DNA from: Candidatus Pacearchaeota archaeon
GTDB taxonomy: Archaea > Nanobdellota > Nanobdellia > Pacearchaeales > JAPDKA01
DNA length: 64,000 bases
NCBI GenBank assembly: GCA_038817835.1
Contig: JAWAZI010000002.1
Coordinates: forward strand, 11,831-75,830
Direction: 5' to 3'
Shown here: positions 9,439 to 61,069 of the stretch, piece after piece
Numbering within the stretch: the stretch's first letter is position 1
Layout: the number at the start of each line of letters is the position of its first letter
Program-made: the position numbers and the translations under genes
The notes under the pieces: model-generated
What the model saw: only the letters and a program-made list of their open reading frames with translations
What the model was told of the DNA's origin: nothing
Database searches by the model: none

Positions 9439-10170
9439 ATGGAATGCTATATTGGCACAAGTGGGTATGTTTATTGGCATTGGAGAGATAGATTTTATCC
9501 TAAAGAATTAAGCAGTTATAAATGGTTTGATTATTATGCAAAATATTTTAATACAGTAGAAATAAATATGTCCTTCTATAAATGGCCGAGTGAAAATATA
9601 ATAAAAGCGTGGAAAAATAAAGTAAAAAAACTTGAAAAAGAAGGAAAAATTTTTCTATATACTTTAAAAGCAAACAAACAAATTACTCATATAAGAAAAC
9701 TTATTGGTATTAAAAAAATTTTAAAAAATTTTTATAAATTAGCTGAAAATATTGAGCCCTATTTAGGATGTATATTATTTCAATTACCACCATCATTAAA
9801 ATTTGATGAAAAAAGAATAGAAAATTTTGTAAATTTATTAGATGAAAACTATATAAATGTAATAGAATTTAGACATAAATCTTGGTGGAACAATGGGGTT
9901 TATAAAATATTAAAAAATAAAGCTGTTTTTTGTATAGTTTCTGCTCCAAATCTTCCTGAAGATTTTATAAAAACTCATGAAAATATTTACATAAGATTTC
10001 ATGGAAAACAAGGATGGTATAGAAGTAATTATAGTGATAATGAACTAAAAGATTGGGCAAAAAAAATAAAAAATAGCAAAGCAAAAAAAGTTTTTGTATA
10101 TTTTAACAATGATTTTAATGCTTATGCTGTGTTTAATGCATTAAAATTAAAAGAATTTTTAAAATGTTAA
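9439..10170 (+). CDS. DUF72 (UPF0759) family protein
   Basis: 243 aa. Contains IGTSGYVYWHWRDRFYP and FQLPPSLKF, blocks typical of DUF72. Confidence 0.8.
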   Translation: MECYIGTSGYVYWHWRDRFYPKELSSYKWFDYYAKYFNTVEINMSFYKWPSENIIKAWKNKVKKLEKEGKIFLYTLKANKQITHIRKLIGIKKILKNFYKLAENIEPYLGCILFQLPPSLKFDEKRIENFVNLLDENYINVIEFRHKSWWNNGVYKILKNKAVFCIVSAPNLPEDFIKTHENIYIRFHGKQGWYRSNYSDNELKDWAKKIKNSKAKKVFVYFNNDFNAYAVFNALKLKEFLKC

Positions 10171-10691
10171 AACAGATAAAAAGAAGAAAAAATAGGACAA
10201 ATTTGATTATTTCTATATCTGCTGGAATTTTAATGATATTAAGTGTTATTGGCTTTGCATTAAATTTAACTCAACAAAAAGAGAAAAATGAAAAAGAATT
10301 TAAAGTTAATATTTATGGGAAGGAAATAGTTGTAAAATTAATTTATTTTGAGAATGAAACAAATGATGTTTTATTAAATTATAACCCAAATATTAATGAT
10401 TTCATAAATAAAAAAATTTATTTTTATTCTCATCCAAAAATTAGAGAAAATTCTCAAAGACTTTTATATTATATTAGCATATTTAGCTTAATAAAAGAAA
10501 CATGTGTAATTGGATATGAATGCTTTAATAATGAATTACCTATAAAAGATTGTAATAATGAAATAATAATTTTTGAATATTCAAATGAAACAAAAATAGA
10601 TAAAAATGATAAATGTATAATAATAAAAGGTAATGAAACAAATATAGATAAAACTATTGATGCTTTCCTTTACAAAATTTTCAAAAAATGA
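10164..10691 (+). CDS. N-terminally membrane-anchored hypothetical protein
   Basis: 175 aa. A basic head (KQIKRRKNRTN) is followed by one TM helix, then a Cys-containing extracytoplasmic domain. Overlaps its neighbours. Confidence 0.55.
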   Translation: MLKQIKRRKNRTNLIISISAGILMILSVIGFALNLTQQKEKNEKEFKVNIYGKEIVVKLIYFENETNDVLLNYNPNINDFINKKIYFYSHPKIRENSQRLLYYISIFSLIKETCVIGYECFNNELPIKDCNNEIIIFEYSNETKIDKNDKCIIIKGNETNIDKTIDAFLYKIFKK

Positions 10692-11290
10692 AAAAAGGAG
10701 TAGAATTTTTAGGAGTAATTTTAATAATTTTAATAGCTATAGCTCTAGCTGGAATTGTATATGGATTAATAAGCCCATACATTAATAAATTAAATAATAT
10801 TGGTTCTTACTGCAAAGTTAATGATTTTTTTATTATAGAAGAAGCATGTAGTTATAAAATAGATAATTATGATATATTATATATATTTCTCTATCGTCCT
10901 TTAGCAAGTGAATTAGATCAAACATATTTTTTAGTTAAGTTATTTGTTGATGGAAAGAAAATTAATATAGCTTTTGATAATAGAACATTCTTTGAATATT
11001 ATAATGGAGAAATAAAAAATGGTAGTGGTAAAATTGAAAAAGGAGAAGGAAAAAGTTTTATAATAATATTAAATCCATATAATATAAGCCATTTAAACAT
11101 TAAAGCTTTAGCAATAAGTATGGTAGGAAAAAAAGATAATATAGAATTTTCATGTGGATTCACAGATGAAATAAAAATCAATGAATGTAAAGGAATAAAA
11201 ATAAATAATATAGGAGAAATAAATATTGAAAATTTAGAAAATTTAAAAAATAATAACAAAGATCAGAAAATTTTAAATTTACCATGGTAA
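10688..11290 (+). CDS. pilin-like (class III signal peptide-like) secreted protein
   Basis: 200 aa. The N-terminus MKKGVEFLGVILIILIAIALAGIVYG resembles the archaeal prepilin signal (basic head, Gly, Glu, hydrophobic stretch). Confidence 0.5.
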   Translation: MKKGVEFLGVILIILIAIALAGIVYGLISPYINKLNNIGSYCKVNDFFIIEEACSYKIDNYDILYIFLYRPLASELDQTYFLVKLFVDGKKINIAFDNRTFFEYYNGEIKNGSGKIEKGEGKSFIIILNPYNISHLNIKALAISMVGKKDNIEFSCGFTDEIKINECKGIKINNIGEINIENLENLKNNNKDQKILNLPW

Positions 11291-11910
11291 ATAAAAAAAT
11301 ATTATTAATTTTAATTTTTTTGTTATTTTTTTCTTTCTCATGTATAAAAAAAGAAAAAGAATTCAATTTTAATGGTTTTAATTATAGTATTATTAATTAT
11401 GGAAAAACAAATGAAGGAAAAAATATAATTGTATATCTAACTAAAATATATTTTCCAGATAAAGATATAATTTATAACCTTTATTTAAGATATGATCCAA
11501 GAAAAAATAATGTTTCTATACAAATAAATAATTTAAAAGAAATTAAGGCTTTAACTTATATAGCTTTTGATAAAAAATTTGAAAATAAAAAATGTATCGA
11601 ATTAACTTTGGCAGGTTTTAGATTAGGAGAATTTTTATATGTTCTCGGTGTAAAAAAAGAAGTAGCAATATTTGATGAAACTAATAGTACTTTTAATGAA
11701 AAATATATTACAATAACTAATTATAATTTCTCTGAAGAAAACAATTTAACATTGATAATATTAAAATATGGTAATGAAGAAAAAGTTTACAATATAAATA
11801 ATACAATTATTATTCAGAGCAATGATTGTAATATCCTTCAAGCTGTAGAAAAATTTATTTTATTTGTTATTGAAAGATTAAAAAATTTAAACACAATAAA
11901 ACCTTTATAA
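11284..11910 (+). CDS. putative lipoprotein / secreted protein
   Basis: 208 aa. The signal peptide ends in a lipobox-like FSFSC. Confidence 0.5.
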   Translation: MVNKKILLILIFLLFFSFSCIKKEKEFNFNGFNYSIINYGKTNEGKNIIVYLTKIYFPDKDIIYNLYLRYDPRKNNVSIQINNLKEIKALTYIAFDKKFENKKCIELTLAGFRLGEFLYVLGVKKEVAIFDETNSTFNEKYITITNYNFSEENNLTLIILKYGNEEKVYNINNTIIIQSNDCNILQAVEKFILFVIERLKNLNTIKPL

Positions 11911-12107: not shown

Positions 12108-13181
12108 ATGTGGGAGATAGCACGAGAAGCAATAGAAAATGCTGAAAAATATGGAATAAATTTTGATGAACTTAAAGCAGGTAAAGCTAATATAAAAGTT
12201 TTTGGTATTGGTGGGGCCGGATGTAATGCAGTAACATGGTTATATAATAAAGGAATAGAAGGAGCAAAAGTATATGCATTAAATACTGATGCCTTACACT
12301 TAAGCATAACAAAGGCAGATGAAAAAATATTAATTGGAAAAGAATTAACAAGAGGATTAGGTTGTGGAGGCTATCCAGAAAAAGGAGCTCTTGCAGCAAA
12401 AGAAAGTATAGCAGAAATAAAGAAAGCTGTTCAAGGAGCTGATATGGTTTGGATTATTGCTGGAATGGGTGGAGGTACAGGAACTGGTGGTGCACCTGTT
12501 GTTGCACAAGTAGCAAAAGAAGCAGGAGCTATAACAATTGGTGTAGTAACTATGCCATTTGAAACTGAAAAAGCAAGAATGGATAAAGCAGAATTTGGTT
12601 TACAACAATTAAGAGAATATTGTGATACTGTAATTGTTATAGATAATAATAGACTTGTTGAAATTGCAGGAAATTTGCCTATTGAAAAAGCATTTGCAGT
12701 TGCAAATGAATTAATAAGTACAATGATAAAGGGTATTGTAGAAACAATAACAATTCCATCATTAATTAATTTAGATTTTGCTGATGTATCAGCAATAATG
12801 AAAAATGGTGATGTAGCAATTATTGGTGTAGGTCAAAGTGATACTGCAAATAGAGTAGAAGAAGCTGTAAGAGCGGCATTAGCTCATCCATTGCTTGATG
12901 TTGATTATAAAGGTGCAAATGGTGCTTTGATACATGTAACATGTGGAGAAGATCTAAAGCTTGAAGAATTGAACAATATTGGTGAGCTTGTAACTCAGCA
13001 CTTAAATCCAGATGCAAATGTAATTTTAGGAGCAAGGATAAATAAGGACTACAAAGGTAAAGTAAAAGTAATAACAATAATTACTGGAGTAAAAAGCCCA
13101 TATATACTTGGAAGGCCCCAAAAAGTAAGTGAAATAACACCTAAATTTTCAGAAGAACTAGGAATAACAGTATTCAAATAA
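12108..13181 (+). CDS. ftsZ: cell division protein FtsZ
   Basis: 357 aa. Contains GIGGAGCNAV and the tubulin signature GMGGGTGTGGAPV, followed by NTDALHL and a T7-loop region. Confidence 0.95.
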   Translation: MWEIAREAIENAEKYGINFDELKAGKANIKVFGIGGAGCNAVTWLYNKGIEGAKVYALNTDALHLSITKADEKILIGKELTRGLGCGGYPEKGALAAKESIAEIKKAVQGADMVWIIAGMGGGTGTGGAPVVAQVAKEAGAITIGVVTMPFETEKARMDKAEFGLQQLREYCDTVIVIDNNRLVEIAGNLPIEKAFAVANELISTMIKGIVETITIPSLINLDFADVSAIMKNGDVAIIGVGQSDTANRVEEAVRAALAHPLLDVDYKGANGALIHVTCGEDLKLEELNNIGELVTQHLNPDANVILGARINKDYKGKVKVITIITGVKSPYILGRPQKVSEITPKFSEELGITVFK

Positions 13182-14824: not shown

Positions 14825-16771
14825 ATGAACTTTGAAGAATTAACTGAATTGTATAAAGATTTAGAGAAAACAACAAAAAGATTAGAGAAAACTTTCATAT
14901 TAGCTAAATTTCTAAAAAAAATAAAAGAATTATATATAGAAAAAAAGATAGATGAAAAAGAAGTTAAATATACATTATATTTAGCTCAAGGGACAGTTTA
15001 TCCAGCATATAGTGAAGAGGAAATAGGAATTAGTGAAAATTTATTAATAAAAGCTATAGCTAAAGCAACTGGTATAAATGAAGAAATAATAAAAGAAAAA
15101 TGGAAAGAAATTGGAGATCTTGGAAAAGTTGCAGAAAATTTGATAAAAGAAAAAAAACAAACAACACTATTTAAAACTAAATTAACAATTACAAAAGTTG
15201 CAGAAAATTTGATAAAAGCATCAAAACTTGAAGGAGAAGGAAGCATAGATAAAAAAATTTCTCTTGTTACTGAATTATTAATAGCAGCTAATCCAATTGA
15301 AGGTAAATATGTTGCAAGAATTATACTAAATGAATTACGTATAGGGGTAGCTACTGGAATATTAAGAGATGCTATAGTATATGCAACTATGCCATTGCCG
15401 ATTCCTTTATTTATATTTTGTGAAAATTGTAAAGAATTTGTTCCATTATATGATTATTGTGTTTCATGCAAAAAAGAAATAAACAAAAAAGAATGGGAAA
15501 TAGCAACAGAAATTGAAAAAAAATTGAATAGAATAATAAAAGAAAATAAACTTAATATTGTTATAGGAAAAGACATAATTATTTTTTCATCTCTTGAAGA
15601 AGCTAGAAAAAAATTTAACGAATTTGTTGAATTAATACAACATAGCTATGATGTTACAAGTGATTTTGGGGAAGTTTTTTTAAAAGCAATAAAAGGAATT
15701 CAAGAGATAGAAAAAGTTGAAATTATTCCTGGAAAACCTATAAAAGTAATGTTAGCACTAAAAGCAAATAGTATATCTGAAGCTTTCGAAAAAGTTGGTA
15801 AACCTGCTCAAATAGAATTCAAATATGATGGATTTAGAGTTTTAATTCATAAAACAAATGAAGGAAAAATAAAAATTTTTACAAGAAGACTTGATGATGT
15901 AACAAAACAATTTCCAGAGATAGTCGATTATGTAAAAAAATTTGTAAAAGGTGATAGTTTTATAATTGATGGTGAAGCGGTTGGTTATGATCCAAAAACA
16001 AAAAAGTATAAACCATTTCAAGAAATAAGTCATAGAATAAAGAGAAAATATGATATAGAAAAATTAGCAAAAGAGCTTCCTGTTGAAGTTAATGTTTTTG
16101 ATATACTTTATTATAATGGAAAATCTTTAATTGATAAACCATTAAAGGAAAGAAGAAAATTATTAGAAAAAATAGTTACTCCAGTAAAATGGAAAATTGT
16201 ATTAGCAAAAAAATTAGTAACTGATAATGAAGATGAAGTTGAAAAATTTTATAATGAAGCATTAAATTTAGGAGAAGAAGGAATAATGCTAAAAAATCTG
16301 AATGCTCCTTATAAACCTGGAGCAAGAGTTGGATATATGATAAAATTAAAACCTAGTGAAACAACTTTAGATTTAGTAATTGTTGGTGCAGAATGGGGTA
16401 CAGGAAAGAGAGCTGGCTGGCTATCAAGTTTTATTCTCGCTTGTTATGATCCTGAAAAAAGAACTTTTTTAACTATAGGAAAAGTAGGAACAGGAATAAA
16501 AGAAAAATCTGAAGAAGGATTAAGTTTTGAAGAACTAACAAAATTGTTAAAACCATTAATAATAGAAGAAAAAGGAAGAGAAGTAAAAATAAAACCTGAA
16601 GTTGTTGTAGAAGTTATATATCAAGAAATTCAAAAAAGCCCAACATATGAAAGTGGTTATGCATTAAGATTTCCAAGAATATTAAGAATGAGACCTGATA
16701 AATCTATATATGAAGCTGATACTATAGAAACTATAAAAAAACTTTATAAAGAACAATTCGAAAAAAAATAA
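14825..16771 (+). CDS. lig: ATP-dependent DNA ligase (archaeal Lig) with internal 4-Cys insertion
   Basis: Start set at MNFEELTELYKDLEKT, because the track ORF start at 14768 runs through tRNA-His. Contains the adenylation motif EFKYDGFRV, plus EGIMLK, LKPS..TLDLVIVGAEWG.GKR and FPRILRMRPDK. Confidence 0.92.
   Translation: MNFEELTELYKDLEKTTKRLEKTFILAKFLKKIKELYIEKKIDEKEVKYTLYLAQGTVYPAYSEEEIGISENLLIKAIAKATGINEEIIKEKWKEIGDLGKVAENLIKEKKQTTLFKTKLTITKVAENLIKASKLEGEGSIDKKISLVTELLIAANPIEGKYVARIILNELRIGVATGILRDAIVYATMPLPIPLFIFCENCKEFVPLYDYCVSCKKEINKKEWEIATEIEKKLNRIIKENKLNIVIGKDIIIFSSLEEARKKFNEFVELIQHSYDVTSDFGEVFLKAIKGIQEIEKVEIIPGKPIKVMLALKANSISEAFEKVGKPAQIEFKYDGFRVLIHKTNEGKIKIFTRRLDDVTKQFPEIVDYVKKFVKGDSFIIDGEAVGYDPKTKKYKPFQEISHRIKRKYDIEKLAKELPVEVNVFDILYYNGKSLIDKPLKERRKLLEKIVTPVKWKIVLAKKLVTDNEDEVEKFYNEALNLGEEGIMLKNLNAPYKPGARVGYMIKLKPSETTLDLVIVGAEWGTGKRAGWLSSFILACYDPEKRTFLTIGKVGTGIKEKSEEGLSFEELTKLLKPLIIEEKGREVKIKPEVVVEVIYQEIQKSPTYESGYALRFPRILRMRPDKSIYEADTIETIKKLYKEQFEKK
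15124..15218 (+). repeat. exact 26-nt in-frame direct repeat inside lig (15124-15149 and 15193-15218)
   Basis: AAAAGTTGCAGAAAATTTGATAAAAG occurs twice, 69 nt (23 codons) apart. It encodes KVAENLIK twice. Confidence 0.9.
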
Positions 16772-17406
16772 TGACAAAAAAATTAAAAATTCTTGCAGCA
16801 GGAGATATCCACGGAGATAAAAAATTAGTTAAAAAACTAGTTGAGAAAGCAGAAAAATATAATGTTGATTTAGTTATTTTAACTGGAGATATAACTTTTA
16901 ATGAATTTGATACTGAAAATATTATAGGTCCATTCCTTGAAAAAAAGAAAAAAGTTTTATTAATTCCAGGAAATCATGAGACACTAGCAACAATAGATTT
17001 TCTTGTTGATCTTTATGGACCTGATGTAAAAAATATCCATGGATATTCATTAAAAATAGGAAATGTTGGTATATTTGGTGTTGGTGGAGCAGTAGAAGTT
17101 GGGCCAAAATTTACATTAACAGAAAAACAAATATTCGAAACTTTAAAAAAAGGATTTGAAAAAATAAAAGATACAAAGAAAAAAATAATGGTAACTCATG
17201 TTCATCCAGCTGAGAGTTTATTAGAAAAATTCAGCGAGATTGTTCCTGGAAGTAAAAGTGTGAAAAAGGCAATTGAATATTTTAAACCAGATATAGTACT
17301 ATGTAGCCATGTTCATGAAGCAAGTGGTTTAGAAGAAAAAATTGGAAAAACAAGAGTTATAAATGTTGGAAAGGAAGGAAAAATAATAGAAATAGAAAGT
17401 GAATAA
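16771..17406 (+). CDS. calcineurin-like metallophosphoesterase
   Basis: 211 aa. Contains the GDIHGD, LTGDIT, GNHE, THVHP and CSHVHE metal-ligand motifs. The start overlaps the lig stop (TAATG). Confidence 0.8.
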   Translation: MTKKLKILAAGDIHGDKKLVKKLVEKAEKYNVDLVILTGDITFNEFDTENIIGPFLEKKKKVLLIPGNHETLATIDFLVDLYGPDVKNIHGYSLKIGNVGIFGVGGAVEVGPKFTLTEKQIFETLKKGFEKIKDTKKKIMVTHVHPAESLLEKFSEIVPGSKSVKKAIEYFKPDIVLCSHVHEASGLEEKIGKTRVINVGKEGKIIEIESE

Positions 17407-17413
17407 AATATCA

Positions 17414-18202
17414 TTAATTTTTTATAGTTTTTCTAGCAAATGTTAAAAATCCCGTATGCAATAAACCTTGCCTCTTTGGTAAAGTATGTTCCCTAACATC
17501 CCAATAGCGTAAAATATTTTCCAAAGTAAAAACTTGTGTAAAACTATATTTTTTTATTTCTTCATTAATAGCTTTAACTTGCTCAATATATGGACTAAAA
17601 ACAATTAACCATCCACCAAACTTCAATGCTTTATACGCATGTTTAACAACTTTTTCTGCATTTTTCATATCAAGAATAACAGCATCTACATTTTTCTCGT
17701 CAATTCCTTTTGTTATATCTTTATTTTTTATTACTATATTTTTTAAACCGCTTTCCAAAATATTATTTTTTGCATTTTTTAAAAAATCTTTTCTTATTTC
17801 ATAACTATAAATTTTTCCTTTTTGACAATAACTAGCTAAAAACAATGTTAGCCAACCACTCCCAAGACCTCCCTCAACAATATGTGCATCATCTTTAAGT
17901 CCTGTAAAAGCAAGAATTAATGCTGAATCTTTTGGTCTTATGGCTTGTGGCATCATTCTTGCTTTCTTATTTAAAAAATCAATTATACTAGGCTTTACTA
18001 ATACAAAAGATATATTCTTATGTGTTTTTATAATATCTCCATATTTTTTTCCAATAATTTCATTAATATCAATCAAACCTTCATCTGTATTCAATCTTTT
18101 TCCTTTTTCAACACGAATTAAAAAACATTTTGTTTTACCCAATAATAAAACTAAATTTTTCTCCTTTATTATTTCTTTCTCATTTAATTTTTTTCTTGCC
18201 AT
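17414..18202 (-). CDS. trmI: tRNA (adenine-N1)-methyltransferase TrmI/Gcd14 family
   Basis: 262 aa. An N-terminal beta domain is followed by a Rossmann SAM motif VEGGLGSGWLTLFLA and DAVILDM. Confidence 0.75.
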   Translation of the reverse strand: MARKKLNEKEIIKEKNLVLLLGKTKCFLIRVEKGKRLNTDEGLIDINEIIGKKYGDIIKTHKNISFVLVKPSIIDFLNKKARMMPQAIRPKDSALILAFTGLKDDAHIVEGGLGSGWLTLFLASYCQKGKIYSYEIRKDFLKNAKNNILESGLKNIVIKNKDITKGIDEKNVDAVILDMKNAEKVVKHAYKALKFGGWLIVFSPYIEQVKAINEEIKKYSFTQVFTLENILRYWDVREHTLPKRQGLLHTGFLTFARKTIKN

Positions 18203-32375: not shown

Positions 32376-34916
32376 TTATCTAATTTTTAAAGTCTTTTTA
32401 ACTTTTTTTATTATATAATCTACTTGCTGTTTTTTCCATCCAGCATTTAAAAGTTGTTGTCTTATCTCATTTTCTTTTTTTCCACTTTTTAAAGAGTTTG
32501 AAACAAAATTAAATAAATTATAATAATCCGCAGCATATGGGAAAAGTTTTTTCTCTTTTTCTTTTTGTTTTATTTTTAAATTTTTAATAATATGTGGGGC
32601 CCAAATTATAATTAAACCTATAATAACCAATATTATTAAGATTATTGAGATAAATAATAAAGGACTTTTTCTTTTTTCATATAATTCTGGTTCTCCATAT
32701 ATTTCTTCACATTCTATTTCATCTATATTATTTGGTGTAGCATAAATATTTACTTCATAAGGAATTATCTCATCATTGTATGCAATTTCTACTGAAGTAG
32801 TATTAAAGCTTATAGCATTTCCTAAATCATTAAAGTTTTTATATGAGTAAATGTCTGAAGATGGTAATTCAACAATTATATTTCCATTATTAATTAAAGA
32901 TAAATAAATAACAGTTATTTTCTTTGTTTCACCATTATAAAATATTATATTTACTATTTTTCCTGAAATTTTTAGTTTTTTATTATTCCATAAAGCTAAA
33001 CTTTTTTTACACGAATCACTATCACAATTGCAATTTCCTAAAATTCTCTCAACATTATCTAAATTTATTTTTTCCCAATTAACAATATAAGTAATCTGTG
33101 GATAATTTGAAATCATTATATTTTTTGGTATTTTATTTTTTAAATTATCAAATTCATTTTTTATTGAATCTAAATCTCCACCAGAAGATAAATTTACTAA
33201 TAACTCTCTAAGTTTATTTTTAGTTTCATTAAGCTCAATTAAATCTATTAGCCAAGATTTATAAAATTCTCCACTTAAATTATTTTCAAAATTTTTGATA
33301 TCATTAATAGCTTTATTCAATGAAGAATTTAATGTATCTTTATCAATACCAACTACTATCTCAAATCCTCTAACTCCAAAAAAATTTTTTTCATCAACTA
33401 CTTTAACAGTTACTAAATATTTTCCAGAATTAGAATATTTATGCTCAAAAATACCATTAGAATTACTTTCTATTGAAGATCCATCACCCCAGTTAACTTC
33501 ATAGTTAATTATATTCCCATTTGGAGAATATGCAATTATTCTAAATTCAGTTTCTTCATTAACAATTACCTTGTTTGGAATTATAGCTGCAATAATAGGA
33601 ACATCTTCTACATAAAATGTTTCAGTTGCTATCAAATAATTATCAAAATAAATTTTTAAAGTATAATTGCCTTTAATACGAGGTGCAGTTAAATTAAAAA
33701 CTTCTAAAGGAATAGATATAAAACCTTTACTATCTACTTTAGGATATTCTACACCAATTTCACTAAATTTATCTAAAAGTAAAGAAGTTCCTCCAGAAAC
33801 AAATCTCAAGTTTAGATCTTTCAAATTAAATCTTTGAGTTGAGTTTATAAATAACGGAATAATACAACCATTACTACAATTATTGTTATATTTTGAATTT
33901 ATATAGTTATTTATATCATTAATCAAATTTTTCTTTGTTTGCTCAAAATAAACTGAAGAATTAAAATTTACATCACCAATTAATCCTCTATTTTTATATT
34001 CTGCAATAAATAAACCATAATGTGATCCGCTATATTGAATTAAAAAAGTATCACTAACATCAGCTCTTACACAAACCTCATAATTTCCTTCTTCTACAAA
34101 AACATCTATATCACAACTAACATAGCTATAATCTCCGCTATAATCTGTAGTATTACATTCTTTAACTATGCCATGTGGTGTTTTTATCTTAAAAAATATA
34201 GTTCCTAGTTGTGAAAAATTTTTTAACTTTATAATACCTCCAACTTTTACTTTACCAGCTGTATATTTTAATGTTATATTATCACAATATTCTTGAGTAG
34301 TTAATATTGCATCATAATTATAACTGAAATTAGTTGGAAACTTAAGTGAACAATTAGAATCTGAAGGATTAATATATAAGTAATCTATACTACCATCAAT
34401 AAAAAGATCTATAATTAAAGGAATATTCCCACATGAATCTTGTTGATTATTTTCTCCACTAATAACAAAACTTAAATCTTGAACATTTACATTTTCTCCA
34501 TTAAGATTAAAACCAATAAATTTTTCTCCAGAGCCACTAATATTTTCATTTGTACTTTTAACATAAAAAACTTTATCACAAGTAACTTTTATATTATTAT
34601 ACCAGCAATCATAATTAATGTTAGTTTTATTCAAAATTTCTAAAATCTTTAATATAGAGTATTTCCCAGTTCCTAATATCTCTGCTTTTATTTTTGATTG
34701 AGAAGAATCATTTTTCAAACTTATATTAAGATATCCATTTATTAATTGATTAGCTCCAACAGGATTAACTATTAACTTTGGATTACCAATTTCATAGGCA
34801 GATACATTTACTAAAAAAATAAAAAAAATTAAAAAAACAAACTTCAACCCCTTTTTCATTAAAAATATTTTAAAAAACATAATTAAAAATTTTTCTTTTC
34901 TAAATTTTCTCTTCAA
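32376..34916 (-). CDS. large surface protein with PKD domain, C-terminal TM anchor and short cytoplasmic tail
   Basis: 846 aa by the track. The signal-peptide-like start MKKGLKFVFLIFFIFLVNVSA at 34859 is more likely. The PKD block is YEVNWGDGSS...HKYSNSGKYLVTVKVVDEKN. The TM is LLFISIILIILVIIGLIIIW, followed by a basic tail. Confidence 0.7.
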   Translation of the reverse strand: MKRKFRKEKFLIMFFKIFLMKKGLKFVFLIFFIFLVNVSAYEIGNPKLIVNPVGANQLINGYLNISLKNDSSQSKIKAEILGTGKYSILKILEILNKTNINYDCWYNNIKVTCDKVFYVKSTNENISGSGEKFIGFNLNGENVNVQDLSFVISGENNQQDSCGNIPLIIDLFIDGSIDYLYINPSDSNCSLKFPTNFSYNYDAILTTQEYCDNITLKYTAGKVKVGGIIKLKNFSQLGTIFFKIKTPHGIVKECNTTDYSGDYSYVSCDIDVFVEEGNYEVCVRADVSDTFLIQYSGSHYGLFIAEYKNRGLIGDVNFNSSVYFEQTKKNLINDINNYINSKYNNNCSNGCIIPLFINSTQRFNLKDLNLRFVSGGTSLLLDKFSEIGVEYPKVDSKGFISIPLEVFNLTAPRIKGNYTLKIYFDNYLIATETFYVEDVPIIAAIIPNKVIVNEETEFRIIAYSPNGNIINYEVNWGDGSSIESNSNGIFEHKYSNSGKYLVTVKVVDEKNFFGVRGFEIVVGIDKDTLNSSLNKAINDIKNFENNLSGEFYKSWLIDLIELNETKNKLRELLVNLSSGGDLDSIKNEFDNLKNKIPKNIMISNYPQITYIVNWEKINLDNVERILGNCNCDSDSCKKSLALWNNKKLKISGKIVNIIFYNGETKKITVIYLSLINNGNIIVELPSSDIYSYKNFNDLGNAISFNTTSVEIAYNDEIIPYEVNIYATPNNIDEIECEEIYGEPELYEKRKSPLLFISIILIILVIIGLIIIWAPHIIKNLKIKQKEKEKKLFPYAADYYNLFNFVSNSLKSGKKENEIRQQLLNAGWKKQQVDYIIKKVKKTLKIR

Positions 34917-56583: not shown

Positions 56584-56736
56584 ATGAAAAATAAAAAAGC
56601 AATAGAAATGAATGAAGTAATTTTATGGATAATTGCTATAATTAGCTTATTAGTTATAATAATAGGTATTTTCATTTTTAGAAAAGGTGGTGAAAATTTA
56701 ATTGAAAAAATAATAAATTTATTTAGATACAAATAA
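56584..56736 (+). CDS. small pilin/Flp-like membrane protein (50 aa; not in supplied ORF track)
   Basis: Sequence MKNKKAIEMNEVILWIIAIISLLVIIIGIFIFRKGGENLIEKIINLFRYK, from ATG 56584 to TAA 56734-56736. It fills the gap between ef1b and the next gene exactly. The antisense track ORF 56520-56732 is a shadow. Confidence 0.55.
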   Translation: MKNKKAIEMNEVILWIIAIISLLVIIIGIFIFRKGGENLIEKIINLFRYK

Positions 56737-56738
56737 TT

Positions 56739-57758
56739 ATGTTAGCTATTGAAAAGCTTGTTTCTTTAATTTTGAAAGTTTTAGCTTTTTTAGTAATTGT
56801 TATTATAATATTTTTATTAGCAAAAACTATTTATGATGGATTTAGTGGATATTTCAAAAAAGAAGAAATATTAAAAAAATATCAACCAAATTATGAATCA
56901 TTATTGAGAAATATTGAAGATTGCCATAAAATTGATGATTTTAATTGTATTTGTGAGATTTTCCCAAATTTCCCAGCAAGTTTTCCAGAAGAAATAAAAA
57001 TTAATATCACCACTATAAATAATAAATCTAATGTAACATTAATATATAAACAAAAAGATGTAATTGATTGGAGAGAAATAGAAAGTATATTTAGGGGGTA
57101 TGGTATTGTATTGATTGAGAATAAAAAAAACTTGGAAGAATTTGGAAAAGAAGAAATAACTGTTGAATTTAATAAAAAAGATATATATGGTTATCCTGGT
57201 TTTAAAACATCTTTACCTTCATTCTATACCATTTATAAAGAAGATATATATTTTATTTTAATTTCTCCATATATACTTAAAGTAACTAAAAATAGAAAAA
57301 ATATTTCTTATTTTTTAGGTATTTCTTCTAAGAAAATAGCCGGATATACAGGAACAGGCTTACCAATAATTAATTCAATAGAACTTAATGATTTAAATAA
57401 AGTTAAAGAAGATTTAGACAAGAAAATTGAAAATATTCCTAAATGTATTGATGGTAGATATCGCTCAGTTGAATTTTTTAAGAAATTAAATGAAACTATA
57501 ACAAATAAAAAAAATATAGAAAATTTAGAAGTAAATTTAGATGAAAAATTTTTAATTGAAATAGATGAGAAAAATATGAGATTATTATATTATAAAAATG
57601 GAGTAAAAGAAATTGTATCAATATTAAAAGAAGAAAATATAGAAGGAACATTGGCTTATGTTTCATTTGATCATGATATAAGCTGCAAAGGAAAAAAATT
57701 AGAATTAATGAATGGGGGTAAGATAAACATAATTAATGGTTGTATTGAAAAATTATAA
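56739..57758 (+). CDS. N-terminally anchored extracytoplasmic protein (339 aa)
   Basis: The N-terminus MLAIEKLVSLILKVLAFLVIVIIIFLL is followed by a Cys-containing soluble domain. No family recognised. Confidence 0.6.
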   Translation: MLAIEKLVSLILKVLAFLVIVIIIFLLAKTIYDGFSGYFKKEEILKKYQPNYESLLRNIEDCHKIDDFNCICEIFPNFPASFPEEIKINITTINNKSNVTLIYKQKDVIDWREIESIFRGYGIVLIENKKNLEEFGKEEITVEFNKKDIYGYPGFKTSLPSFYTIYKEDIYFILISPYILKVTKNRKNISYFLGISSKKIAGYTGTGLPIINSIELNDLNKVKEDLDKKIENIPKCIDGRYRSVEFFKKLNETITNKKNIENLEVNLDEKFLIEIDEKNMRLLYYKNGVKEIVSILKEENIEGTLAYVSFDHDISCKGKKLELMNGGKINIINGCIEKL

Positions 57759-57814
57759 AAAAACTTTTAAAATAATAAAACTTTAAAATTTTAAATAAAA
57801 TTAAAAAAATAAAA

Positions 57815-58159
57815 ATGAAAAAAAGAGGTCAAAACATAAATATAACAACAATAATAATACTTGTATTAGCAATTTTAGTACTTTTAATTGTTGCTATAAG
57901 TTTTACTGGTGGATGGACTAAATTATGGGAAAGAATAACAGGAACATATAAAACTGCTAAAGGTGCTGAGATTGGTCAGGCCTTACATCAATGTGAATTT
58001 TTGTATATTACTAATAATAAAAAAAGTTTTTGTTGTGATATTATTGAAGTAATTAATATAGGAAATACTACATGCAAAGATCTATTTGAGAGAGGATATA
58101 CTACAGAAAAAATTAATTCAACAATAGCAGTTGGATTTTGTGAAGAGATTAGTTGCTAA
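57815..58159 (+). CDS. type IV pilin-like protein (class III signal peptide-like)
   Basis: 114 aa. The N-terminus is MKKRGQNINITTIIILVLAILVLLIVAISF (basic head, G-Q, hydrophobic core). The small globular domain has 6 Cys. Confidence 0.55.
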   Translation: MKKRGQNINITTIIILVLAILVLLIVAISFTGGWTKLWERITGTYKTAKGAEIGQALHQCEFLYITNNKKSFCCDIIEVINIGNTTCKDLFERGYTTEKINSTIAVGFCEEISC

Positions 58160-58168
58160 ATATAAAAA

Positions 58169-58339
58169 ATGAATAAAAGATCACAAGAACTTAACATAAA
58201 GATAATAATTATACTTATAATTTGTTTAATTTTACTTGTTATTTCTATTATTTTTTTTAGTTCTGCTGCAAAACAAATATTTTCAAATCTAATAATAAAA
58301 ATAAAATCTGCTTTTAAACTATTAAATGCGACAACATAA
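58169..58339 (+). CDS. small single-TM protein (56 aa; not in supplied ORF track)
   Basis: Sequence MNKRSQELNIKIIIILIICLILLVISIIFFSSAAKQIFSNLIIKIKSAFKLLNATT. It overlaps the amidase gene start by 14 nt. It competes with, and is preferred over, the antisense ORF 58156-58383. Confidence 0.5.
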   Translation: MNKRSQELNIKIIIILIICLILLVISIIFFSSAAKQIFSNLIIKIKSAFKLLNATT

Positions 58340-59372
58340 ATCATTGATATTACCAACAACAATAATAAAGATAACAATATCAATAATTATACTAGTTGCT
58401 CTTATTTTTTTTGGAAAAAGATTAATAGATTCAATAATAACTTCCAGAGAGGAAACGCAAGCTCAATCACTTTTACAATCAATTAAAAATAGATTAGAAA
58501 ATACCATTTCAGAATATGATGAAAATTTAATTATTTATGCACCATTAAATTGGGATGTTGTATTTTTTCCTAAAGAATTGAATTTTATAAATGGAAAAAG
58601 AAAACCTGAAATTTATGAGTTATATGATGTTCTATGTTTATGTAAAGGGAATAAATGTAAATATTGTATTGTGGTTAATAAAAAAATTCTCGATGAAAAA
58701 AATAAGTATTTTAAATTAACTATAAAAAAACCAATACTTTTAGAAATTAAAAAAGAAGAAGATAGGTTTATTTTTCTTTTAGGAGAAATAGAAGAAAAAG
58801 AAATAAAAATTGAAACAAATCCAAATTTAGAATTTGATTCAACTTATTTTGGAAAATATCCACATAGAAAAGTTGAGAAAAGAGAAATAAAATATATAAT
58901 ATTTCATCATACTGGAGGAAATAGTATTCAAGGAGCATTACAAAATTTTAAAGATAAAGGTTTATCTTCACATTATATAATAGATAAAGATGGAAAAATT
59001 TATTATATCATAGATGAAAAATATATTGCTTATCATGCAAAAGACTATAATGATGTTTCTATAGGAATAGAAATAGTAAATAGTGGTTGTGAAGAATTTA
59101 CTCCTGAACAATATAATTCTTTAAAAAAATTGGTTAATGATATAAATGGAAGATATAAAAATTTACAAATTTTAGGACATTTTGAAATAAATCAACATAA
59201 ATGGGATCCGTCTCCAATTTTCAATTGGAGTGAATTAGGTTTAGAAGAAAAATATAAAAAATATTCACAAAATCAAATTAAATATGCATTTGAAGAATGT
59301 AAGAAAGATAAAATACTTGCACTTTCTCCTGCATCACAAGAAATAAAAGAATATTGGAAACAAATAATATAA
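58326..59372 (+). CDS. membrane-anchored N-acetylmuramoyl-L-alanine amidase (Amidase_2 / AmpD / T7-lysozyme / PGRP fold)
   Basis: 348 aa. Has an N-terminal TM (LILPTTIIKITISIIILVALIFF) and a spacer of about 150 aa. The C-terminal domain is IKYIIFHHTGG...SSHYIIDKDGKIYYI...AYHAKDYNDVSIGIEIVN...FTPEQYNSLKKLV...ILGHFEI...KWDPSP, with an AmpD-like H/H/D zinc triad. Confidence 0.75.
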   Translation: MRQHKSLILPTTIIKITISIIILVALIFFGKRLIDSIITSREETQAQSLLQSIKNRLENTISEYDENLIIYAPLNWDVVFFPKELNFINGKRKPEIYELYDVLCLCKGNKCKYCIVVNKKILDEKNKYFKLTIKKPILLEIKKEEDRFIFLLGEIEEKEIKIETNPNLEFDSTYFGKYPHRKVEKREIKYIIFHHTGGNSIQGALQNFKDKGLSSHYIIDKDGKIYYIIDEKYIAYHAKDYNDVSIGIEIVNSGCEEFTPEQYNSLKKLVNDINGRYKNLQILGHFEINQHKWDPSPIFNWSELGLEEKYKKYSQNQIKYAFEECKKDKILALSPASQEIKEYWKQII

Positions 59373-59374
59373 AA

Positions 59375-59488
59375 ATGAAAAAAGCTGATATAGCAATGGA
59401 AACTATTATTAAAATTTTAATATTTATATTAGTATTAGCAGGTTTAATTATAGGATTAAAAAAATTGTTAGATTTACTATTAAGATGA
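59375..59488 (+). CDS. very small pilin/Flp-like membrane peptide (37 aa; not in supplied ORF track)
   Basis: Sequence MKKADIAMETIIKILIFILVLAGLIIGLKKLLDLLLR. ATGA overlap with the next gene. Confidence 0.45.
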   Translation: MKKADIAMETIIKILIFILVLAGLIIGLKKLLDLLLR

Positions 59489-60291
59489 GAAAAGCTATAA
59501 TAAAGACGTGGGTGATTGGAATAATAATTTTAATTATTTCTGCAGCCATATTAATTTATTTTGCAACAAAGTTAGCACATTTAGGAATAGATAAAAGAGA
59601 AGCATGTAGGCAGAGTGTTGTATTAAGAAGTAAAAGTATCGCTGGTCTACATCCTGGAGAAGCTTTGCCATTAAATTGTCAAACAGAAATAATAAAAATT
59701 AAAACTAGTGATGAGGAAGAAATTAAAAAAATAATTAGTGAAGCTTTATATGATTGTTGGTATATGATGGGGGAAGGAGAATTAGATTTTATAGGGGAAA
59801 GTGGGGAAAAATCATGTGTAATATGTAGTATAATAAAATTTGATGAAAAAATTAAGGGAAAAAATATAAGTGGGCTATATAAATATATGAGGGAAACAAT
59901 AATACCAGGAAAAAATATAACTTTTGCAGATTACATAATGAAAAGAGAAGAAAGTGAAATTCATATGGAGAATGATACTTTAAAAATAGATAAAGATTAT
60001 GCTATTGTATTTTTAATAGTAAGTTCACCAACTCTTGGAGAAACCATAATAAAGAGTTTAATTGGAGTAGGATATGGGGGTATAATTGGAAAGATATTCT
60101 CTCAAGTGATAGCTAAATTAAGTGTTGCAGGATTAATTGTTGGGGCTATACCATCTATAGCTGATTATATACAAACATGGATTAAATGTAAAGGCCATAA
60201 TATGTGTACAGCTTTAATGTTTATCCCATATAATGCTACAGCATTAAGTCAAAGTTGCCAAATTATATTGAGTATCCCTCCAGAAGAATAG
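59485..60291 (+). CDS. membrane protein with N-terminal anchor, Cys-rich ectodomain and C-terminal Gly-rich TM pair
   Basis: 268 aa. Starts MRKAIIKTWVIGIIILIISAAILIYF and contains LIGVGYGGIIGKIF...VAGLIVGAIPSI. No family recognised. Confidence 0.6.
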   Translation: MRKAIIKTWVIGIIILIISAAILIYFATKLAHLGIDKREACRQSVVLRSKSIAGLHPGEALPLNCQTEIIKIKTSDEEEIKKIISEALYDCWYMMGEGELDFIGESGEKSCVICSIIKFDEKIKGKNISGLYKYMRETIIPGKNITFADYIMKREESEIHMENDTLKIDKDYAIVFLIVSSPTLGETIIKSLIGVGYGGIIGKIFSQVIAKLSVAGLIVGAIPSIADYIQTWIKCKGHNMCTALMFIPYNATALSQSCQIILSIPPEE

Positions 60292-60310: not shown

Positions 60311-60383
60311 TGGGCCCGCCAGGATTCGAACCTGGGATCTCTGCCACGTCAAGGCAGCGTCGTAACCACTAGACCACGGGCCC
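60311..60383 (-). tRNA. tRNA-Val (anticodon GAC)
   Basis: The reverse complement is GGGCCCGTGGTCTAGTGGTTACGACGCTGCCTTGACGTGGCAG...CCAGGTTCGAATCCTGGCGGGCCCA. Confidence 0.9.
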
Positions 60384-60418: not shown

Positions 60419-61069
60419 TTATAAAAATGATTTTAATATCTCAAAATTTTTTTCTATATCTTCTTTGGATTTCTCTGAAACATCAAAACATGATTTAATG
60501 TAATCTAAATCTAAGATATTTTCAAAATTTTTAATGTATATTAATAAATTTTTAACATCATCTAAATCTTTTTCTTCTCTGTTTTTCTCTTCTTTAAATT
60601 TTATAAACATTTTTGTAAGAATAAAATCTTCCAAAGTTAAAATTTTTGTAGAAATATCATTAAAATTAAATTTTATTGCCCTTTTTATGCAGCAGTCATA
60701 ATATTTTCTCTTTTTTTCATTTTTTATTAAGCTTATATTAATTAATTCCAAAACATAATAATTATTATTAAATTTAATCATTAACTCATTTTCCCATGGA
60801 TCATATATAAAATTAATTTTATTTTTTGTTAAATTATCAATTATTTTATCTTTGTTTTCAGAAAAAAGTAAATCTAAATCAGAAAATCCCCTAATTATCA
60901 TTTGTGTTAATTTTCTATCAGAGATATTTTCTTTATATTTATTAAAATAATAAATGCTTAAACAAACACGGGAAACACCACCTATCATTACATAGTTTTC
61001 ATTAAATGAATCATTTATTATATCGAAAATTTTTTTGATGTTTTCATCAAATATTCCATATCTTTTCAT
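60419..61069 (-). CDS. putative nucleotidyltransferase-fold protein (DUF6036/MNT-like)
   Basis: 216 aa. Contains VMIGGVSRV...GFSDLDLLF and a later LTLEDFILTKM....REEKDLDDVKNLL, resembling small standalone NTases. Weak assignment. Confidence 0.35.
   Translation of the reverse strand: MKRYGIFDENIKKIFDIINDSFNENYVMIGGVSRVCLSIYYFNKYKENISDRKLTQMIIRGFSDLDLLFSENKDKIIDNLTKNKINFIYDPWENELMIKFNNNYYVLELINISLIKNEKKRKYYDCCIKRAIKFNFNDISTKILTLEDFILTKMFIKFKEEKNREEKDLDDVKNLLIYIKNFENILDLDYIKSCFDVSEKSKEDIEKNFEILKSFL

Follow-up and report, generated by a model that had tools for sequence, protein, structure and literature searches.

In bacteria, type IV pilins can be modular, a small N-terminal pilin module being joined to a bulky one; the available sections of the survey by Raynaud et al. 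(2021, PMC8179133) count 264 such architectures and describe, in Streptococcus sanguinis, a vWA module on PilB and a lectin module on PilC. For archaea, the available part of a survey of pilus systems (2016, PMC4858521) leaves one ATPase clade that is present in nanoarchaea without identified pilins. Large extracellular lytic transglycosylases have been reported from the lineages considered here (Castelle et al., 2021, PMC8204110; Vigneron et al., 2022, PMC9723730). Murein hydrolases occur in about 5% of archaeal genomes, prominently in Nanoarchaeota, and SignalP 6 recognised a Sec or Tat signal peptide in only 32% of the archaeal enzymes (PMC12352652, 2025). Here we analyse a stretch of 64,000 nucleotides (the window) from Candidatus Pacearchaeota archaeon (contig JAWAZI010000002.1 of assembly GCA_038817835.1), which holds a block of seven consecutive plus-strand genes, one of them with a murein amidase domain. 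We propose, with a probability of about 0.65, that the block is the pilin set of a type IV filament specific to the Pacearchaeota and Woesearchaeota (DPANN), and that modular pilins of this filament display hydrolases of the bacterial wall. A preliminary description of the window had put forward a surface structure by which a murein-cutting enzyme is brought to bacteria, and the comparative evidence from sequences and models supports this proposal. The genes of the block, each an open reading frame (ORF) whose product belongs to one of the families A to G, and the parts of gene 5 are as follows; a slash marks the end of the leader.

Gene 1, 56584-56736, plus strand: family A mini-protein of 50 aa, start MKNKKA/IEMNE...
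Gene 2, 56739-57758, plus strand: family B protein of 339 aa
Gene 3, 57815-58159, plus strand: pilin-like family C protein of 114 aa, start MKKRG/QNINITTIIILVLAILVLL
Gene 4, 58169-58339, plus strand: mini-pilin-like family D protein of 56 aa, start MNKRS/QELNI...
Gene 5, 58326-59372, plus strand: family E protein of 348 aa
Gene 5, pilin module, 58326-58790, plus strand: residues 1-155, from an AlphaFold 2 model; leader MRQHKS/
Gene 5, linker, 58791-58877, plus strand: residues about 156-184, a low-confidence segment of the model
Gene 5, enzyme module, 58878-59372, plus strand: Amidase_2, residues about 185-310, with a helical tail to 348
Gene 6, 59375-59488, plus strand: family F mini-protein of 37 aa, start MKKA/DIAMETIIKIL...
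Gene 7, 59485-60291, plus strand: family G protein of 268 aa, start MRKA/IIKTW...

Gene 5 is the sole member of the block whose product matches a curated family; the products of genes 1-4, 6 and 7 gave nothing better than an E-value of about 0.003 in Pfam, NCBIfam or PHROG. Residues 185-297 of gene 5 match Amidase_2 (Pfam PF01510, E = 2.8e-29, 102.5 bits against a cut-off of 26), and in PHROG the protein matches endolysin and amidase families with E-values down to 4e-20. Among PDB sequences, matches were found to AmiD (2bh7, 6.5e-8), AmpDh2, T7 lysozyme and AmpD. A Foldseek search with the model returned 61 matches at E <= 1e-3, among them AmpD (2y2b, 5e-9), AmpDh2, AmiD, phage endolysins, T7 lysozyme and peptidoglycan recognition proteins; it is the amidase part that dominates the matches listed. 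Residues H194, Y217, E249, H285, K292 and D294 correspond, in the alignment, to positions that are conserved in AmiD and AmpDh2. By comparison with the structures of T7 lysozyme and AmpD, we take H194, H285 and D294 to be the zinc ligands, and Y217, K292 and E249 to be catalytic. Gene 5 is thus predicted to encode a zinc N-acetylmuramoyl-L-alanine amidase of the AmpD/AmiD/T7-lysozyme fold, which looks intact. The complete amidase of this type reported in the preliminary description was borne out, with the Pfam match, the fold match and the conserved predicted zinc and catalytic residues in agreement.

Ahead of the amidase, the AlphaFold 2 model of gene 5 (predicted local distance difference test score, pLDDT, 83 overall and mostly 83-98 in the helical and strand parts) shows a 49-residue N-terminal helix (residues 11-59), a beta-sheet (68-154) and a linker. 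The prediction therefore contains the elements of a pilin fold, a long N-terminal helix and beta strands within 68-154. The confidence of the model is low around residues 150-180 and falls below 50 at residues 156-159, in the linker; the short orthologues of family E (150-195 aa) end near this point. The sheet bears a conserved C104-x-C106 ... C111-x-x-C114 motif, and P73, W76, P94, C104, C106, C111 and C114 are nearly invariant in an alignment of family E (A3). We conclude that gene 5, as modelled, is a modular pilin, made of a pilin module (the alpha-1 helix and a disulfide-containing beta-sheet), a flexible linker and an amidase. As in modular pilins generally, the predicted pilin module and linker precede a separate C-terminal module, and the carrier also exists without it.

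The N-termini of family E also resemble those of prepilins. We scored leaders by a [KR][GAS] dipeptide just ahead of the hydrophobic stretch, which is evidence at the level of a motif only, and found it in 68 of the 74 members (92%). The family consensus, NKKG/FLLxEETLKIIIAVI, shows the classical signature of prepilins: Phe at +1, with acidic residues at +5 and +6. When the family E profile was compared with PDB sequences, the KKG/F of the profile was aligned with the KKG/FTLIE of Geobacter PilA (geopilin 9egp, E = 0.018); of the other weak matches, about half were pilins (PilA) or 8fk7, deposited as 'Flagellin'. The lack of an acidic residue near +5 was tried as a mark of the enzyme-bearing members (4/14 long versus 44/55 short proteins) and was rejected, as the trend follows the clade.

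The enzyme of gene 5 turned out to be one of several occupants of the same position. Among the 74 distinct family E proteins, 57 (115-220 aa) are without an enzyme domain and 16 (334-389 aa) have an extra module; the typical member is a pilin-like protein of about 160 aa. The long forms share the N-terminal module and differ in their C-terminal domains, and in roughly a fifth of the genomes a hydrolase is borne by E or by either of two further pilin-like carriers of the locus. The modules found on each carrier are listed below, the counts for carrier E being taken among 17 aligned long E proteins.

Carrier E with SLT: 6 proteins
Carrier E with Amidase_2: 2 proteins (window and P0002)
Carrier E with Glucosaminidase: 2 proteins
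Carrier E with 3D: L023, with L036 similar
Carrier E with Lysozyme_like, a weak match: L035
Carrier E with a C-terminal domain without a match: L006, L034 and L068
Carrier p185 (two genes after G) with Amidase_2: L053, L076, L084 and L088
Carrier p266 (fourth gene after G) with Amidase_2: P0003, P0005 and P0006
p266-like protein with a weak Peptidase_M23 match: L068

Pfam confirmed an E-like SLT protein (L030) and an E-like Glucosaminidase protein (L027). In the 90 loci searched, all matches to hydrolase domains fell on pilin-like carriers, as judged with hidden Markov models (HMMs) that were built from the fused domains and may miss divergent enzymes. The amidase modules on E and p266 form one lineage, with 40-50% identity, in which P0005 (on p266) is a nearer relative of P0002 (on E) than the window protein is; the amidases borne by p185 form a second lineage. 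That there are two lineages, one of them on two carriers, indicates that murein hydrolases were gained more than once and moved between carriers. The preliminary description had made the amidase a part of the apparatus and had asked whether one is always included. It is present in gene 5; elsewhere it is optional or replaced by SLT, Glucosaminidase or 3D, and the 57 enzyme-free proteins answer the question in the negative. Since so many family E proteins lack an enzyme, wall cutting appears to be an add-on and not the core function.

The C-terminal domains of the long E proteins of L006 (8893-9897), L034 (7228-8262) and L068 (9676-10692) are about 170 aa long and gave no Pfam, PHROG or PDB sequence match. 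They are candidates for unrecognised wall-degrading or wall-binding domains, a role that we suspect because of the other occupants of the same slot. An assignment of the L006 orthologue of gene 5 to the LAS/M15-type peptidases was considered and dropped, as no Pfam, PHROG or PDB sequence match was found for it.

We then asked what accompanies the block in relatives, using 80 loci out of the 133 genomes with a family G relative. In 54 of the 80 loci, a highly conserved ATPase of about 762 aa is encoded a few kb at most from G and in the same orientation. It matches Pfam T2SSE (1.9e-10, 40.4 bits against a cut-off of 24.9) and the NCBIfam model for FlaI (7.7e-38, below the equivalog cut-off); the TadA and VirB11 models also match, and there is a sub-threshold match to the bindosome ATPase BasE (6.6e-18). 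Adjoining the ATPase, a polytopic protein of about 720 aa, the putative platform, is encoded in 64/80 loci. At the other end of the pilin genes, 43/80 loci encode a Peptidase_A24 protein of 281 aa (Pfam 7.7e-12, above the cut-off; FlaK model 2.3e-8). At least one of the three was found in 69/80 loci and all three in 37/80, mostly on the same strand as the block and within 3-6 kb of it. Six of the 11 loci without any machinery gene are on contigs shorter than 5 kb, and the others on contigs of up to 21 kb (L013). The order of genes in two of the loci is as follows.

L064 (a typical locus of Woesearchaeota), first part: ATPase, platform, A, a 55-aa mini-protein, E (157 aa), F (33 aa), G (313 aa)
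L064, after G: the pilin-like genes p132, p185, A'-like and p96, then a C-like pilin, A24 peptidase, EF-1-beta
L019 (complete genome Pace33H): platform, A-B-C-D-E-F-G, four pilin-like genes; the ATPase lies 7 kb further

In the sub-lineage that comprises the window, L006 and L008/L013, the A-G block lies by EF-1-beta with no machinery within 10 kb. The block is thus detached from the machinery in the clade of the window, so that the presence of the machinery in this genome is an assumption.

Two further conserved genes lie just upstream of the filament ATPase, divergent from it, in 46 loci (for example at 3181-4418 in L064, 3249-4340 in L082 and 15974-17272 in L019, all on the minus strand). 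They encode a coiled-coil protein of about 108 aa and a protein of 240-300 aa with the N-terminal pattern GTL..I..MK.QG....I...L...G.SPK.I..A; a weak GldL/PorL-like match (3e-4) was the only one. The two are probably cytoplasmic parts of the filament system. A coiled-coil protein is reported for a halobacterial system, and nanoarchaea too have ATPases of the clade to which that of this system belongs (PMC4858521).

The block itself is widely conserved. Relatives of family G were found in 133 GTDB species genomes by a pattern scan of one genome per GTDB species, and an exhaustive HMMER search of 1.84 billion representative proteins detected 4,246 representative clusters (50% identity) at E <= 1e-3 and 916 at E <= 1e-30. 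Nearly all of the 80 loci are labelled Pacearchaeota, Woesearchaeota or Nanoarchaeota; a few are labelled only 'archaeon', and Diapherotrites and Methanosarcinales occur once each. About 80 species-level genomes share the order A-(B-C-D)-E-F-G, with A, E, F and G as the core and with B, C and D between A and E in the Pacearchaeota-type layout. On three long Pacearchaeota contigs the block has the same order, after EF-1-beta and before S3Ae, L44e and GINS. The possibility, raised in the preliminary description, that the cluster is unique to this genome is thereby removed. Proteins were assigned to families A to G with local HMMs built from the window, L006, L008 and L010 proteins, in a single iteration restricted to the neighbourhood of G. 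This restriction was adopted because, on iteration, the HMMs of the very small families A, D and F began to pick up hydrophobic helices of every kind; the division of ORFs between A, D, F and the additional small genes is approximate.

That the seven genes of the window belong together is also seen in the window itself. The seven ORFs were confirmed between 56584 and 60291, and the same genes were obtained from independent gene calls on identical DNA in public assemblies; the identical DNA is also present in the Logan assemblies SRR21619490 and SRR21619494. The spacing between successive genes is +2, +56, +9, -14, +2 and -4 nt. Coordinates, strand, lengths and spacings in the preliminary description were thus all reproduced, and its N-termini were correct, with A-I/M-E triplets in genes 1, 2 and 6 and RGQ or RSQ in genes 3 and 4. 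It had also ascribed a basic head and a hydrophobic start to every member; the hydrophobic N-terminus is found in all seven, but gene 2 has no basic leader. Outside the block, 16 of the 70 called genes of the window have an N-terminal hydrophobic stretch. At this background rate a run of seven is expected with a frequency of 0.23^7 = 3e-5 per position, or about 0.002 per window, so that seven hydrophobic N-termini in a row are unlikely to have arisen by chance.

Five of the seven proteins of the block have the leader motif directly ahead of their hydrophobic stretch (KKA, KRG, KRS, KKA and RKA); the exceptions are gene 5, with the more degenerate HKS, and gene 2, without a motif. Used as a stand-alone test, [KR][GAS] was rejected on account of its high background, 5/16 in the window and 242/643 among loosely filtered ORFs, a set that includes other pilin-like genes. 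Gene 1 has a basic leader ending in K-A, a single hydrophobic helix and a short conserved tail, GENLIEKIINLFRY; across family A the motif, mostly KG or RG, lies 4-5 residues ahead of the hydrophobic stretch in 104/120 members (87%), and the orthologues of gene 1 open the block in nearly all loci. Gene 3 has a Cys-rich head with 6 Cys. The leader and helix of family C are strongly conserved in L006, L008, L010, L019 and L003, the motif is present in 34/38 members (89%), and the family is related to the C-like pilin gene that adjoins the A24 peptidase in Woesearchaeota-type loci (phmmer, 5.3e-6). Family C is a candidate for the structural (major) subunit.

Family D has the motif in 17/27 members (63%). 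Gene 4 ends with a conserved N-A-T glycosylation sequon, and a C-terminal N-x-S/T sequon (consensus ..ALGLWN[AS][ST]) was found in 20/29 short ORFs assigned to C or D; by a reading of the ORF listing, about 18 of roughly 21 true members of family D have it. Conservation of this sequon suggests that the C-terminus of family D lies outside the cell. Together with the conserved cysteines of E and G, the sequon argues, at the level of sequence, for an N-in, C-out topology.

In family G, the motif is present in 59/87 members (68%). The proteins have a long N-terminal helix, a Cys-rich alpha/beta domain, a Gly/Ala-rich segment and a conserved C-terminus, ...C..I.SIP; in alignment A1, C41, C65, C91, C111 and C114 are invariant and C258 nearly so. 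The preliminary description had suggested looking for a pilin-like helix and globular head in the 268-aa protein. The AlphaFold 2 model of gene 7 (pLDDT 75) has predicted N-terminal helices (3-34 and 37-52) followed by an alpha/beta domain; a counterpart in the PDB was not found, either by fold (best E = 7e-3, with a template modelling score of 0.13) or with the family G profile among PDB sequences. Family G is the signature protein of the filament system. Its Gly/Ala-rich hydrophobic segment (residues ~184-226 in the window protein) lies between two conserved Cys-containing blocks and is very variable in length, being far longer in P0020, P0021 and P0023; in the gene 7 model, pLDDT is below 50 there. 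The segment could be a membrane-active or flexible loop.

Families B and F differ from the others. Gene 2 has an N-terminal hydrophobic anchor and no basic leader, and its ectodomain has 6 Cys (with a CxC motif at FNCICEIF) and 5 N-x-S/T sequons. Family B varies from 54 to 391 aa, is confined to the Pacearchaeota-type layout, gave no family match in Pfam, NCBIfam or PHROG and lacks [KR][GAS] in 26/28 members. It is an accessory component specific to this lineage and is probably no prepilin. Gene 6 is one hydrophobic helix. Family F sits between E and G in most loci; its proteins usually have 33 aa and start ME..IIKIL without a leader, the motif being present in only 12/70 members (17%). Since the families of genes 2 and 6 are mostly leaderless, not all seven proteins are prepilins; B and F may be unprocessed partners.

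From the sequences we infer a leader processing, an assembly, an enzyme activity and a target that can be joined in one scheme. The leaders would be removed by an A24 peptidase encoded elsewhere in the genome, and the ATPase and platform would build a pilus, or a short pseudopilus, from the subunits, which would polymerise through their N-terminal helices. The bulky modular pilin would sit at the tip or on the surface of the filament, and its amidase would thus be kept on the outer side of the archaeal cell. When a bacterium is touched, this enzyme would cut the MurNAc-L-Ala bond and strip peptide stems from the glycan strands. Possibly, the local opening of the sacculus lets the small archaeon anchor to a bacterial host or prey, gain access to its membrane or draw food from it. 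Murein is confined to bacteria, and archaea do not make it. Pseudomurein is without MurNAc and beta-1,4 links, and Amidase_2, SLT and GH73 enzymes should not cut it. The slot is interchangeable: in relatives it is either empty or filled by a lytic transglycosylase, a glucosaminidase or a 3D-domain protein. Because all enzymes of the slot are murein-specific and archaea are without murein, the target should be bacterial murein. A wall-cutting subunit suggests physical attack on, or attachment to, bacteria by these archaea. In its widest form, the proposal is that a DPANN branch has its own filament, whose pilins are hydrolase carriers, as an organelle for cross-domain attack on or attachment to bacteria; we advance this form tentatively, at somewhat less than even odds.

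Several observations weigh against a filament of modular pilins. The family E profile matches pilins of the PDB weakly (0.018-0.9), and designed helical proteins are interspersed among these matches. The leader of gene 5, HKS/LILP, has no Gly and no acidic residue near +5, and 57 of the 74 distinct E proteins are enzyme-free. The putative platform matches Pfam T2SSF only below threshold (best 3.6e-4, in 3/29 members), and its profile found no match among PDB sequences. Searches with phmmer, using DPANN-type queries, found no ATPase, platform or A24 peptidase in the 64-kb window, as the preliminary description had stated for the assembly ATPase, platform and prepilin peptidase, and the reachable same-species contigs at the window edges carry housekeeping genes only. 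In this genome alone the leader motif is weak evidence, because it also occurs in 5/16 background proteins of the window with a hydrophobic start, in a Lys-rich proteome; it is present in just 7% and 17% of families B and F, respectively. Lastly, no curated pilin or class III model of Pfam or NCBIfam (Class_IIIsignal, archaeal pilin N-terminal, Flp/Fap, and the NCBIfam prepilin N-terminal cleavage/methylation models were sought) matches any of the seven proteins, even at E <= 1. The same was found for the cluster proteins of L003, and none of the arCOG- or Pfam-based archaeal pilin models matches the block proteins. The pilin-like reading of the preliminary description is thus upheld by the [KR]G leaders of the orthologues and by the linkage to the machinery, though not by any known pilin HMM. 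Our own conclusion from the sequences is that the block proteins are pilin-like but of families without names. Taken by family, A, C, D, E, F and G count as pilin-like, a short leader of Lys and Arg that ends in Gly, Ala or Ser being followed by about 20 hydrophobic residues.

Some of these points would also fit a membrane-tethered surface complex that forms no filament, in which the proteins are uncleaved signal-anchor (type II) proteins and the amidase acts on bacteria pressed against the cell. The degenerate leader of gene 5, the leaderless families B and F, the absence of machinery from the window, the lack of matches to curated pilin models and the frequency of the leader motif in the background proteome are all consistent with such a complex. 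However, the orthologues keep [KR]G leaders across about 80 species, and an A24 peptidase, a FlaI-like ATPase and a platform-like gene are co-located with the block in most relatives. Moreover, the G/FLLxEE of the family E consensus is like a prepilin cleavage motif, and the modelled helix of 49 residues far exceeds a membrane span. We therefore consider a tethered complex unlikely, if still worth keeping in view.

About equally improbable, in our estimate, is that the same machinery builds a short piston or display scaffold, after the manner of a type II secretion pseudopilus or the Sulfolobus bindosome, and that it releases or exposes hydrolases which digest free murein debris as a source of amino sugars and peptides, leaving the wall of a living partner intact. 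The loci have 10-12 different small pilin-like genes each, comparable to major and minor pseudopilins, and the sub-threshold match of the ATPase to BasE points in the same direction. Class III signals on archaeal surface proteins other than pilins are known, according to the available part of the 2016 survey (PMC4858521), and DPANN genomes have been described as those of scavengers (PMC8204110). Here, however, the enzymes are covalently fused to the pilin module and are not free cargo, and no transporter or catabolic genes for murein fragments were seen adjoining the cluster.

Murein hydrolases are familiar in bacterial pilus and secretion loci, and the enzymes could in principle be directed at the envelope of the archaeon itself, whether as autolysins or, like VirB1 and FlgJ, to make room for filament assembly. 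We regard this as very improbable: pseudomurein is not an expected substrate, and the enzyme is optional in its family, unlike an assembly requirement. Moreover, murein and lytic transglycosylases are normally absent in archaea (PMC8204110). Least probable of all is the alternative offered in the preliminary description, a domesticated phage lysis cassette of holin-like mini-proteins and a signal-anchored endolysin beside tRNA-Val, for although the amidase matches the PHROG endolysin families, small single-helix proteins surround it and a tRNA gene is adjacent, the alternative is contradicted by the six other proteins, which match no holin or other phage family in PHROG, by the translation and replication neighbours (eIF2-alpha, EF-1-beta, S3Ae, L44e and GINS) and a position that is syntenic across species, by orthologues of gene 5 that are mostly enzyme-free, by the pilus-machinery locus to which the block belongs in relatives, by the absence of a family G relative from 2.9 million viral contigs (IMG/VR), and by the fact that an archaeon without murein has no wall to lyse.

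The surroundings of the block are as follows. The window, from a contig of 84.5 kb, is very AT-rich (19-29% G+C), and the block lies immediately 3' of the genes for eIF2-alpha, a 222-aa protein and EF-1-beta, all on the same strand. Just downstream is the tRNA gene:

tRNA-Val (GAC), 60311-60383, minus strand

Between tRNA-Val and thioredoxin, a gene on the minus strand (60419-61069) encodes a 216-aa protein that gave no Pfam match and has the same place in L091 and L092. At the upstream boundary, near-identical strains differ. In L091 (GCA_038895215.1, the same species as the window; 16255-17820), EF-1-beta was called with 57 aa and is followed by a 378-aa Beta_propel gene, whereas the window has the 222-aa gene and eIF2-alpha at the corresponding position; this looks like a rearrangement or an assembly break exactly at the edge of the block. 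Elsewhere in the window, three co-directional genes for proteins of 175, 200 and 208 aa with hydrophobic N-termini lie at 10164-11910 (plus strand), upstream of ftsZ (12108-13181). No Pfam family was assigned to the three in the gene table, and the 175- and 200-aa proteins had no match on direct scan; the start of the 200-aa protein, MKKG/VEFLGVILIILIAIALAG, is class III-like. These genes may form a second small pilin-like set in the same genome. At 32376-34916 (minus strand), an 846-aa ORF has a signal-peptide-like start (MKKGLKFVFLIFFIFLVNVSAYE), and its product is probably large and extracellular.

Few uncultured archaea are as abundant as the Pacearchaeota and Woesearchaeota. To our knowledge, all cultivated DPANN archaea live on other archaea. 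If a filament with hydrolase-bearing pilins is indeed what the block encodes, many Pacearchaeota and Woesearchaeota would be episymbionts or predators of bacteria rather than of archaea, and the class III or prepilin pathway would be an export route for the 'signal-less' archaeal murein hydrolases of the surveys. Enzymes of four or five unrelated murein-hydrolase families have repeatedly been joined to subunits of one putative filament system, and this is unusually direct genomic evidence for contact with, and cutting of, bacterial walls. Family G, with more than 4,000 representative clusters and no Pfam model, offers a marker for tracing the system in metagenomes. The block also gives defined proteins for antibodies, for labelling in cryo-electron tomography and for sacculus assays, and a hint for the choice of bacterial co-culture partners.

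How the locus stands to known systems can be considered from the machinery outwards. Like the archaeal type IV filaments and the bindosome, as far as the available part of the 2016 survey describes them (PMC4858521), the DPANN loci combine class III-type leaders with an A24 peptidase, a FlaI/TadA-like ATPase and a polytopic partner, and the bindosome sets a precedent for functional, non-structural proteins with class III signals. Unlike in those filaments, the ATPase here is unusually long (~762 aa) and falls far below the FlaI and BasE cut-offs. The block may supply the pilins for the nanoarchaeal ATPase clade of that survey, of which the 762-aa ATPase is a candidate member. Functionally, the proposed organelle resembles the Tad-like Kil system of Myxococcus xanthus, which kills on contact (PMC8460266), and the type IV pili used by Saccharibacteria for host binding (PMC11623550), in that a type IV filament machine works at cell contact. 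Judged from the abstract on Kil and the passages available on Saccharibacteria pili, both systems are bacterial, the resemblance is of function only, and neither text mentions a hydrolase-bearing pilin.

Loci with VirB1 or FlgJ are similar in that they include a gene for an SLT, a glucosaminidase or an amidase among those for secretion or pilus formation. Enzymes such as VirB1 and FlgJ open the sacculus of their producer. Here, in contrast, the producer is an archaeon that is expected to be without murein, so that the target would be foreign.

The reported murein hydrolases of DPANN archaea come from the same lineages, belong to the same enzyme classes (GH23 SLT and amidases) and have led to the same inference on bacterial walls. 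They are, however, either free secreted proteins or proteins of very great size (up to 3,000 aa), and only Sec and Tat signals were scored (PMC12352652); the proteins described here have 330-470 aa and are built on pilin-like carriers inside a filament locus. Such carriers suggest how the hydrolases reach the cell surface. Thus, the remark in the preliminary description that nothing of this kind had been described in archaea holds in part: hydrolases had already been reported (PMC8204110, PMC9723730, PMC12352652), whereas in open-access full texts we found no description of a fusion of a murein hydrolase with a pilin in archaea, or of this DPANN filament locus.

The closest parallel remains that with the bacterial modular pilins. 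In the available sections of the 2021 survey (PMC8179133), as in our loci, the linker is short, the module is thought to be placed at the tip of the filament, and one carrier takes many modules. Unlike those pilins, the ones proposed here are archaeal, their carriers come from DPANN families without a match to the bacterial prepilin HMMs, and their modules are murein hydrolases; in the sections of PMC8179133 that could be compared, a peptidase module is the only mention of this sort. The modular-pilin idea would in this way be extended from bacteria to archaea, and enzymes that degrade a foreign wall would be added to the list of modules.

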